Positions 2,994 through 58,053 of a stretch of 64,000 nt of DNA are shown in pieces (positions within the stretch are counted from its first letter, which is position 1; each line of letters opens with the position of its first letter). Source of the stretch: Defluviitaleaceae bacterium (GTDB lineage Bacteria; Bacillota; Clostridia; Lachnospirales; WRAX01); NCBI GenBank assembly GCA_009779935.1, contig WRAX01000011.1, positions 539 through 64,538 of the forward strand. Direction: 5' to 3'. Position numbers and translations under genes: made by a program. The notes beneath the pieces are model-generated. The model worked only from the letters and a program-made list of their open reading frames with translations, was not told where the DNA came from and did no database searches.

Positions 2994-3259
2994 AATAACT
3001 CCTCCTTATATTTAGGAATTACGTTCGCAGAAGAAAGTTTCAAAACCTATTATTTGACAGGTTTTGAATTTTTATGCACATGATGTTAGAAAATTGATTT
3101 TTGGGCAGCGGCTTGTGTTACAGTAGCTGTGTTGGTTGGAGCCAGCAGCCAATAATGGGATGTGCAGATTTTACATTATTTCAACTTCGCCAATTCCAAT
3201 CCATGATTTTTAGCACAAAGCTCACATAGCCCGTGCTTGAATGTTCATGCACAAGAATA

Positions 3260-4672
3260 TCATGGAAATTGTGGTTTCTGAGGTTGCTCGTAATGCCTTT
3301 TGTTTAGTAGGTCAATGTAATCATATACCGACTTTTCTGTAACTTCCAGCCCTATGTCATGCAATAAAGATAATCGCAATAAAAGCTCTAATTTTTGCAT
3401 AGCCAGTTTGTTTTCATCATACTTAAAATAGTCATCCGTCTTAAACAAATGCGAGATAAAATTTCTATGGTTTACAGCCTTACTAATGAAAACATCAAAT
3501 AGTGTCTTGTTGTGAGGTGGTGTATCCGTATTCCGCTCATATTCAAAAATTTTTTTAGTAAGCGGAGTGCGCTCAATAGCAAACAAAAGAATCTTACGCA
3601 GACTCTTTTTGTTGATACGCCCAAGGCTATTTTCAATACTGGTTATAACCTCATTAAATAAAACCTCATCGAAAGAATTTTTAATTTCGTCTGAATTTTT
3701 TATTGCTTCAAGGGCAGTCTTAACGATAAGTCTATTGCGTTTTTTATCATAAATCATCATCTCTTTGTCGTGATGTGTAGTAAAGTAACCCTCCAAGCAT
3801 TGGATAAGCGTAGATGTTTTCACTTCTTCAAACATATCACGGCTATACAGCACATTCAGAAATACAGTAAACACAGGTATGTTTTCCACTCTCATGCTGA
3901 ACCATTTATCGAATTTATCAGAAAAATTATCCATGTTCTCAAGAAACAGACGCCTCTCTATATGGATTGCGCTTTTTTTCGATTGATGTATGCCCTTTGA
4001 GTGTTCAGCATAAATAAACTCATCTTCACCATCGAAAAAACGCATATCTTTGATTTCGGGGAAATATCCAATCCACATAAAATACATTTCGAGGAGTGTG
4101 AAAAAGCAGTCTTTTATTTTTTCAAATGACATAGGGCTCATGGGGGTCAATTCAAACATCGCACCGTTATTTTTTCTTTCGCCATCTTTAATTGACGACC
4201 ATTCCGTTTTGACGCAAATCATGTCCGAGCATATTTTATACTCGCTTCGACCAACGCTATTTCTATACTGATTTTTGGCATCTTCCACGATGCACTTCAT
4301 ATTGATGACATAGCAATCGCTTTTGCTTGAAATGTGCTTACCGATTATTATGCCATTCCACACAATTCGCATTTCTTTCAACGGTGCATTCAAGTGACAT
4401 ATGCTGCACCCGTAGAGAGTAAACGGGATATTGTTCACATCAAAACCGTATACAAAGTCTGCCTCATCTGCATCATATTTTCGCAAATAATGCATATCAA
4501 GCATATCAATATAGCCAGACTTTTCTACATTGAAATCAAACTGCCGTTCTTTTAAGTTGATTGTGAAGTCAATATCAAGCCTTTCAATCGTTTCGCTTCC
4601 AAGCGCAAGTCTGATAAGAGCGATGCCCTGTATTTCCGTTAGATAAACGTAATCCAATTGACCTACAATGAT
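3260..4672 (-). CDS. ApeA-like HEPN-domain protein (candidate defence RNase). The start is uncertain; the maximal ORF runs to 4756.
   Basis: A long, AT-rich ORF with a C-terminal Rx4H motif (AVNHRNFISH) in a helical region. Size and layout resemble ApeA (N-terminal domain plus HEPN). The 5' ORF extension 4690-4756 overlaps a conserved non-coding module. An AGGGGGG RBS lies at 4675-4681. Confidence 0.5.
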   Translation of the reverse strand: MIVGQLDYVYLTEIQGIALIRLALGSETIERLDIDFTINLKERQFDFNVEKSGYIDMLDMHYLRKYDADEADFVYGFDVNNIPFTLYGCSICHLNAPLKEMRIVWNGIIIGKHISSKSDCYVINMKCIVEDAKNQYRNSVGRSEYKICSDMICVKTEWSSIKDGERKNNGAMFELTPMSPMSFEKIKDCFFTLLEMYFMWIGYFPEIKDMRFFDGEDEFIYAEHSKGIHQSKKSAIHIERRLFLENMDNFSDKFDKWFSMRVENIPVFTVFLNVLYSRDMFEEVKTSTLIQCLEGYFTTHHDKEMMIYDKKRNRLIVKTALEAIKNSDEIKNSFDEVLFNEVITSIENSLGRINKKSLRKILLFAIERTPLTKKIFEYERNTDTPPHNKTLFDVFISKAVNHRNFISHLFKTDDYFKYDENKLAMQKLELLLRLSLLHDIGLEVTEKSVYDYIDLLNKRHYEQPQKPQFP

Positions 4673-4689
4673 AACCCCCCTACACGAAA

Positions 4690-4790
4690 AATATTTTTGC
4701 GCAAGTGCTACTCTCGCCGTGGTGCATAAGTGCGCTCTTTTGATTGTATAGACCAAAGTGCGTTATTTGCACCCTTTACAGCTTAGAACT
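4690..4790 (-). repeat. Copy c1 of the conserved upstream module (shorter version)
   Basis: In gene orientation it reads GTAAAGGGTGCAAATAACGCACTTTGG...AAAAGAGCGCACTTATGCAC...GCGCAAAAAT. This aligns with the modules at 42973-43128 and 43955-44109. Confidence 0.7.
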
Positions 4791-4864
4791 TAAGATTTAG
4801 CATCCTCAGAAATGGCGCAAAAGCAGTGCGTGAAGATGTGCATCCGCTTATTGAACACTGGTTC

Positions 4865-5314
4865 TTAATCTTGAAAGGCTGTTCTTCTCCGCATTTCTTC
4901 CATAAATTCTCTAATTTCTTTACGATCCTTCGGCAGTATGGGCTCGTCCATATACACACTGGGTTCGCCCTTTATATCTATGCGCCAATGGTTGCCGTGT
5001 AGGTGAAATGTTCTTATCACCCTTGTTATATGTTGATATTCCAGCTTGCGCTCTTTATTACCCAAAGTTAAGTCGGCATGGGTTTTGTGGATGGTGGCTG
5101 TGGCTGTTGCATCCGTCCAAATGCGCATGGGGATATAGGCACCCAAAAATATGGCAATAAAAAGCAGTATGCCAACAATCGCATTAATTTGGTTATCCGA
5201 AAAGAAATAAAACACAATGGACATTAGGGCAAAGGCGATGGCGATGGCGGGCAGCATTAACGTAACAGTAAGCCAGCTACGGCCGTATTTGAATTTGTGG
5301 ACATTATTATTCAT
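4865..5314 (-). CDS. Small membrane protein (2 TM helices plus a soluble C-terminal domain)
   Basis: The ORF lies immediately after the speE stop and has a GGGGG RBS. It has two hydrophobic helices. Confidence 0.55.
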   Translation of the reverse strand: MNNNVHKFKYGRSWLTVTLMLPAIAIAFALMSIVFYFFSDNQINAIVGILLFIAIFLGAYIPMRIWTDATATATIHKTHADLTLGNKERKLEYQHITRVIRTFHLHGNHWRIDIKGEPSVYMDEPILPKDRKEIREFMEEMRRRTAFQD

Positions 5315-5315
5315 A

Positions 5316-6161
5316 TTAAACCCCCAAAAGCTTCAAAACATGGTTTGGCAGGGCAAATGCCCCTACATGCAGTTTTGTGTTATAATACTGGGTATCCAGC
5401 CCAAAGCTGCTCCATTTATCCGCCTGCATATCACGCACCGGATGTGCGCCTTTGGTTGCAAAACCAAACAGCCAATGCCCACCGGGATAGGTGTGCACAT
5501 TGGCTTGATATGCCAAAGCTATGGGGAAAGCCCCTTTTATCTTGCCGAAAGCCCGCTGCATGGATAGGATATCGTGGGCATAAAATGTGCCGCCCAGCTG
5601 GTTTACCATAATGCCGCTTTCCGTCATGGCATTGTAGCAATTGCCGTAAAATTCCTTGGTAAACAGCCCTTCGCCGGGGCCAAACGGGTCGGTGGAATCT
5701 ACCACGATAAGGTCATACTCATTCTGCTTTTTACGGACGAATTTTAGGCCATCTTCAAAATAAAGGTTAAGGCGGGGGTCATCAAGGCAGCCGGCGGTTT
5801 GGGGCAAAAACTGCCGGCAAGCATCCACCACCATTTTATCAATTTCTACCATATCCATTTGCTTTATGGTGGGGTAGCGTGCCAGCTCCCGCACCATGCC
5901 GCCATCCCCTGCACCAATAATCAAAACTTTTTCTATATTAGGGTTAACCGCCATAGGCACATGGGAAAGCATATCGTGATAAACAAATTCATCCTTTTCC
6001 GTTAGCATGGTAAAACCGTCCAAAATCAGAATACGGCCATATTCCTTGGATTCGTAAATATCCACCCGCTGGTAATCACTTTGCCCGCTAAACAGATGCT
6101 GCTCTAATTTAATATCCAGCCGCACATTTTCTGTGTGTATTTCTGAGAACCATAGTTCCAT
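5316..6161 (-). CDS. speE: Spermidine synthase
   Basis: MELWFSE...YQRVDIYESKEYGRILILDG...VLIIGAGDGGMVREL...DLIVVDSTDP is a full-length SpeE signature. Confidence 0.95.
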   Translation of the reverse strand: MELWFSEIHTENVRLDIKLEQHLFSGQSDYQRVDIYESKEYGRILILDGFTMLTEKDEFVYHDMLSHVPMAVNPNIEKVLIIGAGDGGMVRELARYPTIKQMDMVEIDKMVVDACRQFLPQTAGCLDDPRLNLYFEDGLKFVRKKQNEYDLIVVDSTDPFGPGEGLFTKEFYGNCYNAMTESGIMVNQLGGTFYAHDILSMQRAFGKIKGAFPIALAYQANVHTYPGGHWLFGFATKGAHPVRDMQADKWSSFGLDTQYYNTKLHVGAFALPNHVLKLLGV

Positions 6162-6164
6162 GGT

Positions 6165-6596
6165 TTAACCTCCCGTCACAACTTGTTTTATTATTCCCGA
6201 AACAACTTTACCCGCTATATCCACCATTGCTTTCAAAGTAGTTGCTCCAACCTTTGAAGCAGCGGACTTGGTTTTGTCCCAATTGTCATTAGAGCGTATG
6301 TTGCCCAGAAAGTCGTGCCCTTCTGGCGTGATGTCCCTTATTTTATAATAGTTTGGGCCGATATCATTCTTTACCCAGTCAGCTTTAATAAGCCCGCTTT
6401 CATTCATTTGCAACAAAGAGTAAAGTATGTCTTCTTCTGAATAATCCAGCTTCCCACTTTCTATAATATCCTTAGATATTATTTTTTTGGGCTTACCTGT
6501 AAACGAGCCGTCATCTTTATTGCCCTTTTTCTTCATCACTTGATTTTCTTCAATCCAAATCAAAATGCTTCTAATGCACTCTAAATCAAGTTTCAT
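6165..6596 (-). CDS. DUF2513-like winged-helix protein inserted in the polyamine operon
   Basis: The N-terminus MKLDLECIRSILIWIEEN and the ITPEGHDFL motif resemble DUF2513. The gene is AT-rich relative to its neighbours. Confidence 0.5.
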   Translation of the reverse strand: MKLDLECIRSILIWIEENQVMKKKGNKDDGSFTGKPKKIISKDIIESGKLDYSEEDILYSLLQMNESGLIKADWVKNDIGPNYYKIRDITPEGHDFLGNIRSNDNWDKTKSAASKVGATTLKAMVDIAGKVVSGIIKQVVTGG

Positions 6597-36745: not shown

Positions 36746-36781
36746 TAAAGAGTATAAATTTCCCCCACACTTATCACCTTG

Positions 36782-36883
36782 TAGCAATTCCATTCTCAAT
36801 CACGGAAAAGGATATTTTGAAAACGCACTGAAACCTGCGATTTTCAAAATATCCTTTTCCATGTTTCGAATTGGAATTGGTAT
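36782..36883. repeat. MITE-like palindromic repeat, copy A
   Basis: Its reverse complement differs from copy B (54761-54863) at about six positions. Internal arms GGAAAAGGATATTTTGAAAA and TTTTCAAAATATCCTTTTCC are perfectly complementary. Confidence 0.85.
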
Positions 36884-42445: not shown

Positions 42446-42958
42446 TTATAATTCCGCTAAAGTTTTTGCAAACTTGATTAACCCAGCAGGATGCTTAGTA
42501 TTGTTTTGATTACGCTCAACATATTCGCAAAACAAACGTATACTCTCTTCACGAAAAAGCCCTATATTCACTTTCGGGAAATGCCATGTTTCGGATGGTC
42601 GTTTTTCAAATGCAATTCTAACAAAGTCTGTAGCTCCATCTTCCGGGGCTTCCAAAGAATAATATATTTTACCAACAAAACTTGATATAGCCATCCCAAG
42701 GCACATGAGGCAAGGTTCAAGGTTTGTATACAATTCTAATTTAGTTCGGACTGAATACGGCAATTTTTGCATGTCTGCATCATAAAGTGCTTTTTGTTCG
42801 GCGTGTACCAGAAATCTTCCATCCTCACGTTCGGTTGTATGTGCAGATGAAACTAGTTTATCGCCATGATAAATAGCGGCGGCAATGGGGAGCTCCCCTT
42901 TACTCATCGATTCCTTTGCCAAACTGATTACAAAAGCCATTTTTTCATTCGGTGTCAT
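42446..42958 (-). CDS. CMP/dCMP-type zinc deaminase (TadA / nucleoside deaminase-like)
   Basis: Contains the VHAEQKA and EPCLMCLGMA zinc-binding motifs. A GAGG RBS precedes the ATG at 42958. Confidence 0.8.
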   Translation of the reverse strand: MTPNEKMAFVISLAKESMSKGELPIAAAIYHGDKLVSSAHTTEREDGRFLVHAEQKALYDADMQKLPYSVRTKLELYTNLEPCLMCLGMAISSFVGKIYYSLEAPEDGATDFVRIAFEKRPSETWHFPKVNIGLFREESIRLFCEYVERNQNNTKHPAGLIKFAKTLAEL

Positions 42959-42972
42959 TTTTACCTCGCTTA

Positions 42973-43128
42973 TATAAATTTTACGCACGCACCACACTCG
43001 TTGTTGTACATAAGTGCGCTCTTTTTGCTTTTCCATTCAGCCAGTAAAGTCATTTTATCACAATTTTATTTTCTGTGACAATGTTGTCCGAACTGCGTTA
43101 TTTCTACCCTGCATAGCACACGTTCTAT
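42973..43128 (-). repeat. Copy c2 of the conserved upstream module
   Basis: Aligns along its length with 43955-44109, sharing AAATAACGCAGTTCG, TTGTGATAAAATGAC, GCACTTATGTAC and GTGCG-AAAATTTATA. Confidence 0.8.
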
Positions 43129-43384: not shown

Positions 43385-43927
<543 letters not shown>

Positions 43928-43954: not shown

Positions 43955-44109
43955 TATAAATTTTGCGCACGTACCCATGCTTGCAGTGGTACATAAGTGC
44001 CCCTCTGTTTTTATTATCCAAATAGTATAGTCATTTTATCACAACTTTGGATTGTTGTAGAGAAGTTCACGAACTGCGTTATTTATGCCCTTCACAGCTC
44101 ACGTTGTAG
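43955..44109 (-). repeat. Copy c3 of the conserved upstream module
   Basis: See c2. It has the same length and block order. Confidence 0.8.
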
Positions 44110-54760: not shown

Positions 54761-54863
54761 ATACCAATTCCAATTCGAAACATGGAAAAGGATATTTTGA
54801 AAATCGCAAGTTTCAGTGCGTTTTCAAAATGTGCTTTTCCATGATTGAGAATGGAATTGGTAT
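54761..54863. repeat. MITE-like palindromic repeat, copy B, inside the spoIIIA operon
   Basis: ATACCAATTCCAATTCGAAACATGGAAAAGGATATTTTGAAAA...TTTTCAAAATGTGCTTTTCCATGATTGAGAATGGAATTGGTAT. Confidence 0.85.
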
Positions 54864-54927
54864 TACATAAGAGGGGTGGGGGGAAATCGGCTTTGCCTTC
54901 GCAACCCCCACCTACGGGAGTGATAAA

Positions 54928-57990: not shown

Positions 57991-58009
57991 ATGTTGATGT
58001 TTTGGAGTG

Positions 58010-58043
58010 ATACCAATTCCATTCTCAATCATGGAATTGGTAT
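58010..58043. repeat. MITE-like repeat, minimal copy C (ends only)
   Basis: ATACCAATTCCAT-tctcaatc-ATGGAATTGGTAT has the same termini as copies A and B, with the interior missing. Confidence 0.75.
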
Positions 58044-58053
58044 GATTTGAGTA

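Follow-up and report, generated by a model that had tools for sequence, protein, structure and literature searches.

The ApeA proteins that have been studied experimentally, Ec1ApeA, Ec2ApeA and their relatives, are predominantly helical proteins of about 580-600 residues, in which N-terminal and Mid domains are followed by a split HEPN_ApeA domain. They assemble into rings of ten or twelve subunits, are activated through a dinucleotide- or RNA-binding pocket that is separate from the active site, and cleave tRNA anticodon loops or phage genomic RNA (bioRxiv 10.64898/2026.01.26.701840; 10.64898/2026.03.20.713152). A different N-terminal domain, ApeA-NTD1, was described by Anantharaman 2013 as consisting mostly of beta strands, and the same work reported ApeA genes embedded in restriction-modification (R-M) operons. 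The subject of this analysis is an ApeA-like gene on the minus strand of a stretch of 64,000 nucleotides from a Defluviitaleaceae bacterium (contig WRAX01000011.1, positions 539 to 64,538), referred to here as the window, where the gene lies between spoVT and a polyamine operon.

Taken as a whole, the locus is best explained as an RNase gene of the ApeA/BMEI1217 family that is carried by a foreign unit without a transposase and whose expression has been weakened, an explanation to which a probability of roughly 0.7 is assigned. As far as the sequence goes, the assignment to the family holds: the window protein is predicted to be a divergent ApeA/BMEI1217 member, in which an NTD1-related, beta-rich domain precedes a C-terminal HEPN_Apea domain with its motif intact (Table 1). 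The only Pfam family matched by the protein is HEPN_Apea (PF18739), with 34.6-35.1 bits against a gathering cut-off of 24.4, and the alignment covers residues 289-443 of the protein and positions 3-133 of the 136 in the profile. The PADLOC Cas13-ApeA model, which represents ApeA-type HEPN, also matches (E 2e-9). These two matches bear out the original prediction, made from the letters of the sequence, that an ApeA-like HEPN protein is encoded here. The PADLOC model of PDC-S58 gives a partial match (E 3e-8) that spans positions 245-329 of 461 (85 positions), and a search of the protein against NCBIfam returned no match.

The string NHRNFISH at 3472-3449, previously read as the Rx4H signature of HEPN RNases, is present, and its conservation among homologs is confirmed. 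Across an alignment of 56 full-length relatives, no columns are invariant apart from those of R403 and H408; N404 is kept in at least 90% of the sequences, and the same pattern is found in the 13 closest relatives. HEPN_Apea is matched by 46 of the 56 (E down to 1.9e-40), PDLC05048, the PDC-S58 model, by 17 (E down to 1.8e-108), and ApeA_NTD1 by 11 (best E 1e-52). The relationship of the N-terminal part to NTD1 appears in profile comparisons. When the N-terminal 240 residues of the clade were compared by hhalign with seven NTD1-bearing proteins, a probability of 96.3% was obtained (E 1.7e-9, 156 columns); the C-terminal domains of the same two sets gave 99.1%, and the cross controls gave 0.1% for N-against-C and 37% for C-against-N. 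A profile of the window family also recovers bona fide proteins with NTD1 and HEPN_Apea over most of their length. An AlphaFold2 model built from 13 sequences (predicted local distance difference test, pLDDT, 83.6; predicted template modelling score 0.79) shows a beta-rich region at residues 13-223 and a helical one at 250-461, in agreement with the account of ApeA-NTD1 as mostly beta strands.

The close relatives of the window protein are few: a word-index search of 5.8 billion clusters returned only 17. This close clade comes from gut metagenomes and metagenome-assembled genomes (MAGs), mainly from the termite gut (Defluviitaleaceae) and the human gut (Blautia). A profile search of 1.84 billion representatives returned 358 relatives, counted as cluster representatives. 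The ApeA-like gene was seen in just 3 of about 185,000 species-representative genomes, in a scan limited to a pattern, and tblastn left it unmatched in phage and plasmid collections. The family is already known, and the window clade is a very divergent new branch of it.

In the window, the neighbours of the gene are polyamine genes and spoVT (TIGR02851 equivalog match, 261 bits), with neither R-M genes nor a defence island. An association with such genes, which the window copy lacks, is found in three of its relatives. At locus L004 (51% identical), the homolog is placed between the Mod and Res genes of a type III R-M system, with reading frames that overlap or abut. At L017 (51%), AbiH stands directly upstream, and a TPR protein and an LA2681-type HEPN protein (HEPN_LA2681) follow downstream. 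At L022, as at L018 (both 38%), a T5orf172-ResIII protein overlaps the start of the homolog, which is followed by a RES-domain toxin. The 70% homologs at L001 and L015 are carried by a stretch, or element, with NikA/MobC and RelB-YoeB, and in a Defluviitaleaceae MAG the homolog (36%) comes after a RhuM-family gene. The gene lineage occupies at least three unrelated neighbourhoods. Among 100 neighbouring open reading frames (ORFs) at 18 loci, type III R-M genes, homing endonucleases, recombinases or integrases and RES toxins recur; many other neighbours, like those in the window, have ordinary housekeeping functions.

L004 (439-11623) carries a DrmD-like SNF2 helicase upstream of the Mod, ApeA-like and Res genes and an Mrr-type nuclease downstream of them. 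L017 (1000-4955), on a termite-gut contig, is a compact islet on one strand, formed by AbiH, the ApeA-like gene, the TPR gene and the LA2681-type HEPN gene.

The tight packing at L004, the overlap with an upstream ResIII-type gene at L022 and L018, and the R-M operons of Anantharaman 2013 could also be read in another way, with the protein not as an autonomous phage sensor but as an addiction or toxin component that works with R-M or other partners and is orphaned in the window. The partner genes, however, are not the same at every locus (AbiH, RES, type III R-M or none), many relatives stand alone, and the related class is treated by PADLOC as the single-gene candidate PDC-S58. A dependence on partners is considered improbable on these grounds.

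That the gene is foreign to its surroundings is visible in its composition. The ORF has a GC content of 0.363, the minimum among all 1.4-kb sliding windows of the 64 kb (mean 0.448); spoVT has 0.496 and speE 0.472, and the speE, decarboxylase and speD genes together range from 0.42 to 0.49. The ORF ends in a TGA at 3262-3260 and would extend over 3260..4756, giving 498 residues, if counted from a far-upstream TTG. No transposase ORF was found between 3197 and 4800. The gene had been described as an AT-rich, stand-alone cassette with a copy of a shared module, c1, ahead of it, and both the composition and the foreign-looking single-gene unit are upheld. The gene was very probably brought in on a unit of about 1.6 kb that spans roughly 3197-4800.

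The left end of this unit is tied to a homolog elsewhere. Module c1 shares two blocks with copies c2 (42979-43127) and c3 (43975-44108), and its outer tip, AATCTTAAGTTCTAAGCTGTAAA, is homologous to AAGCTATAGTTTTAAGCTGTAAA, the left inverted repeat directly upstream of the 70% homolog at L002; the two align with a score of 15, reached in 0 of 1000 shuffles. The L002 homolog is bounded by an imperfect inverted repeat of 25 bp, and none of 1000 shuffles scored as high as the comparison of its left with its right copy. In a related termite-gut metagenome, the c1 leader block reaches a depth up to about 12-fold higher than that of the gene and has several different flanks. A scan of 30 homolog loci for copies of the module or the 3' element found none, the exception being the short outer box that precedes the 70% homologs. 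No clear target-site duplication was seen by eye around the window unit, and a search for an empty site through the upstream gene, whose 149-residue protein is without any homolog, returned nothing. The window right end compares with c1-c3 at chance level. Horizontal acquisition of the gene, as foreign DNA in a small unit without a transposase, has been shown in part.

Some further features of the module and repeats were recorded. The other two module copies precede genes for a MafB19/dCMP-type deaminase and a UPF0167 (CbrC-family) protein (42446-43036 and 43385-43912, minus strand), whose GC content of 0.39-0.40 is low like that of the ApeA-like gene. Among the contigs with 60-70% homologs, an indel of some 250 nt, situated between the left repeat and the upstream gene, sets L001 (5717-5975) apart from L016 (60-70), and L016 retains only the inner half of the left inverted repeat.

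Several results weigh against the explanation of the locus as a family RNase on a foreign unit, and the first of them concern the fold. Foldseek found neither a significant match nor a HEPN entry in the PDB, for the whole model or for a separate model of the C-terminal domain (pLDDT 89.3), and neither the single protein nor the 56-sequence profile retrieved anything relevant from the PDB sequences. Nothing significant was returned for the whole model from BFVD either. Foldseek matches to GFP, a receptor and myoglobin had template modelling scores below 0.25 and were set aside as meaningless. The original prediction had been staked on a HEPN fold being detected by profile or structure searches: the profiles do detect HEPN, and Foldseek, supplied with two good models, does not. 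The solved HEPN_ApeA domains are described as a diverged, split form of HEPN, whose nearest structural homolog, HepT, was identified with GT-align, and the Foldseek result is for this reason taken as a failure of the available test rather than as evidence against HEPN. The HEPN fold of the window protein is predicted from profiles and the motif only. The structural result and the modest Pfam score of the window protein by itself (35 bits) might suggest that the C-terminal helical domain is no RNase and that its Rx4H motif is coincidental. Such a spurious assignment is hardly credible, since this motif is the sole invariant feature across the 56 relatives, relatives match HEPN_Apea with E down to 1.9e-40, the C-terminal domains align with those of NTD1-bearing relatives at 99.1%, and the solved domains are themselves described as diverged and split, with HepT as the nearest structure given by GT-align.

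The N-terminal domain and the standing of its class bring further points of this kind. Searches with both HEPN_Apea and ApeA_NTD1 had been proposed as a check of the prediction; the former matched, and Pfam ApeA_NTD1 gave no direct match to the window protein at E <= 1. No NTD1-type protein (450-470 residues, beta-rich) shown to defend was found in the literature. The only NTD1-sized relative in the two recent papers, a "minimal homolog" of 467 residues, could not be transformed and is presumably toxic (bioRxiv 10.64898/2026.01.26.701840; 10.64898/2026.03.20.713152), and PDC-S58, a PADLOC single-gene candidate, appears in one genome survey without testing there. The NTD1-type class is a defence candidate and no proven system. 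As for the unit, the resemblance of its right end to the right repeat of L002 is marginal, with 67 of 1000 shuffles scoring as high.

The remaining points concern expression. The start region reads A-GGGGGG (4681-4675), TT, ATC (4672), ATT (4669), GTA (4666), GGT, CAA and TTG (4657), and no ATG, GTG or TTG lies within 16 nt of the ribosome-binding site (RBS). A canonical start codon is therefore absent at the RBS of the window, as had been noticed from the sequence, the first one being TTG 4657 at a distance of 17 nt. All seven close homolog loci (7/7) carry an ATG 7-10 nt past an AGGAG-type Shine-Dalgarno (SD) sequence, at the position of the GTA, which indicates that the window copy has lost the start codon of the family. 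A contig identical to 3030-5895 is present in two metagenome runs of different studies, one of which may be the source of the window, making an assembly error an unlikely cause of the GTA and the unusual start. Module c1 lacks a segment of about 51 nt that bears a TG-extended -10 box in c2 and c3, and its leader has lost the hairpin present in both (z-score +0.46); Rfam reported no family for this leader at E <= 10. No RNA run containing the ApeA-like gene was found. Finally, the closest relative, about 90% identical (L013/L014), is a clear pseudogene: in window coordinates, it is truncated at 4511 on its 5' side and interrupted at 3442-3445 by an insertion sequence (IS), and it carries two frameshifts and a stop.

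These observations would fit a defence gene that is being lost or silenced, in which the ORF is still intact and is not translated, its start having mutated (probably from ATG through GTG to GTA) and its promoter segment having been deleted. Besides the GTA, the missing -10 segment, the leader that does not fold and the premature stop, truncation and other damage of the sister copy, the shifted stop codon can be counted in favor: L013 reads TAG at the CAG of the window, so that the tail QPQKPQFP of the window protein reflects a stop-codon shift. Yet the frame is fully open over 470 codons, all family-conserved residues are kept, the strong SD persists with an ATT 5 nt behind it, and read-through from the polyamine operon is possible. 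Loss or silencing is a serious possibility on this evidence, though less likely than not.

Transcripts would most likely come from read-through of the polyamine operon, since no minus-strand terminator is found between the ORF and the upstream 149-residue gene and speE. Judging from the GTA and the missing promoter segment, expression would be low at best, with translation from the ATT or the distant TTG on such transcripts. Low expression would suit a toxic RNase and might just as well mark the beginning of decay. A broader proposal sees the gene as one passenger of a family of transposase-less, inverted-repeat cassettes in termite-gut Clostridia, which would carry individual genes for defence or toxins from one genome to another and have their own promoter and leader in the left arm and a shared 3' element with a hairpin in the right arm; the promoter loss and the change from ATG to GTA would then be a selected throttle that holds a toxic RNase at a level the cell tolerates, and not decay. 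This proposal is put forward tentatively and is considered rather doubtful.

The IS in the sister copy is about 850 bp long, with ORFs matching DUF4096 and DDE_Tnp_1 (L013 2041-2892, L014 1924-2775), and sits just after the HEPN motif. The sequences on its two sides have 4 bp in common (window 3442-3445), as would be expected if the insertion had duplicated a 4-bp target.

Table 1. Features of the ApeA-like locus, in window coordinates.
Feature	Position	Strand	Remarks
ApeA-family ORF	3260..4672	-	470 residues from ATC 4672; 465 residues from TTG 4657
HEPN_Apea domain (predicted)	3344..3808	-	residues 289-443; Pfam PF18739, PADLOC Cas13-ApeA, hhalign 99.1%
Catalytic motif R403-N-F-I-S-H408 (Rx4H)	3449..3466	-	R and H invariant in the alignment
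Beta-rich N-terminal domain	4004..4636	-	residues 13-223; AlphaFold2 and hhalign; putative remote homolog of ApeA_NTD1, presumed sensor
TTG, start chosen by gene callers	4655..4657	-	17 nt after the G-run, three codons downstream of the GTA
GTA codon	4664..4666	-	exact position of the ATG start in 7/7 close homolog loci
ATT, candidate non-canonical start	4667..4669	-	5 nt after the G-run, one codon upstream of the GTA; inferred
Shine-Dalgarno-like AGGGGGG	4675..4681	-	aligns with AGGAG of homologs
Module copy c1	4685..4797 (approx.)	-	outer box, AAATAACGCA block and leader block; no promoter segment; degraded hairpin
Conserved 3' element with hairpin	3206..3288	-	contributes the final 8 codons of the ORF and its stop
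CCAATTCCAATCCATGA	3190..3206	.	right boundary of the shared unit; marginal likeness both to a MITE end and to the right inverted repeat around the homolog
Strong intrinsic terminator	3039..3068	-	12-bp stem and T-rich tail; the only strong one downstream, outside the cassette

On the 3' side, the sequence of the roughly 90% relative (L013/L014) matches the window down to 3205/3206 and then diverges. A stretch of 45 nt that spans the stop (3241-3285) occurs in a related termite-gut metagenome at about five-fold the gene's depth and follows two or more other sequences there, which suggests a shared 3' element that may be portable. Two strings in this flank had been read as fragments of a module and of a miniature inverted-repeat transposable element (MITE), and the locus, from them, as a hotspot of repeat-mediated insertion. 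The strings sit exactly where they were placed; the resemblances proposed for them are weak. Alignments of the flank (3084-3262) with c1, c2 and c3 were equalled or exceeded by 89-147 of 200 shuffles, and the 11-mer CCAATTCCAAT that the flank has in common with the MITE termini by 6-16 of 200, so that the likeness to module c3 is at chance level and that to the MITE marginal. A hotspot is not demonstrated by them, and 3206-3290 is conserved 3' sequence that the 90% relative shares. Two more specific candidates were rejected likewise: a c3 fragment at 3214-3238, where alignment scores equal those of shuffled controls and the stretch is conserved in the 90% relative, and a MITE inserted at the end of the gene, as L013 carries this sequence at the corresponding position.

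The MITE itself is about 125 nt long, with termini beginning ATACCAATTCCA and internal palindromes, and is present at 36759-36883, 54761-54885 and 58007-58052; one of the copies is a short palindromic version of 34 nt. Other observations concern the surroundings of the unit. Between the polyamine operon and the cassette, directly behind speE, lies the ORF of a 149-residue membrane protein (4865-5314, minus strand), for which no homolog except itself was found among the 5.8 billion protein clusters. Within the row of speD, decarboxylase and speE genes, a DUF2513 protein is encoded at 6165-6596 (minus strand; Pfam E 2.7e-21, GC 0.38), and this gene looks like another small foreign insertion. Rfam, run over the whole window, found one tRNA and nothing else.

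The mechanism of the window protein can be proposed by analogy with the characterised HEPN_ApeA proteins (bioRxiv 10.64898/2026.01.26.701840; 10.64898/2026.03.20.713152). Two copies of the protein would dimerise through their HEPN domains and form one composite active site, which the N-terminal domain may hold off until a cue of infection is sensed. Once activated, the enzyme would cut tRNA anticodon loops or other RNA and thereby halt phage growth. The unit encoding it appears to have been inserted behind the final gene of the polyamine operon and ahead of the operon terminator, just upstream of spoVT; its left end, module c1, is homologous to the left inverted repeat around the 70% homolog elsewhere.

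Nothing in these results changes current knowledge in kind. The NTD1-type ApeA class, with about 460 residues and a beta-rich sensor, is nevertheless widespread, as the 358 cluster representatives of the profile search indicate, and the mechanistic work found in the literature is all on the larger, helical ApeA proteins. A clade from gut Clostridia with clear defence-island neighbours strengthens the case that this class is defensive, and its small, compact proteins are suited to studying the control that a beta-rich sensor domain exerts on a HEPN RNase. With its missing ATG and its place in a cassette, the locus is also a modest case from nature of toxic defence genes being moved, throttled and lost.

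Like mobile insertion cassettes, the 70% homolog lies within an inverted repeat and lacks an internal transposase; the left copy of that repeat has a homolog in the outer tip of the window module c1, and the same gene lineage is found in unrelated neighbourhoods, three or more in number. The window unit differs from such cassettes in that its right repeat can be recognised only marginally and in that no target-site duplication, empty site or cognate transposase was identified for it.

With the ApeA defence system (Gao et al. 2020; Juozapaitis et al. 2026; Drobysheva et al. 2026), the locus shares its single-gene organisation and a C-terminal HEPN_ApeA domain with an R-N-x3-H motif, which reads RNKITH in Ec1ApeA and RNFISH in the window protein; by analogy, RNase action of a HEPN dimer triggered by infection is likely shared as well. 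Ec1ApeA and Ec2ApeA, in contrast, have about 580-600 residues with helical N-terminal and Mid domains, against 465-470 residues and a beta-rich N-terminal domain in the window protein, onto which their pocket, regulatory-loop and ring features could not be mapped. The likeness to the single-gene ApeA defence protein that had been put forward thus extends to the ApeA-like HEPN domain and not to the size and N-terminal architecture of the tested ApeA proteins.

The ApeA/BMEI1217 family (Anantharaman 2013; PF18862 with PF18739, overlapping PDC-S58) differs from the window protein in that the Pfam NTD1 model does not score on the latter, the PDC-S58 model covers 85 of 461 positions, and identity to NTD1-bearing members is about 14-20%. 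The two agree in their length of 450-470 residues, in an N-terminal domain of about 250-300 residues that consists, by prediction for the window protein, mostly of beta strands, and in the C-terminal HEPN_Apea domain with RNxxxH that follows it, and some members of the family, like the relative of the window protein at L004, are encoded within R-M operons.

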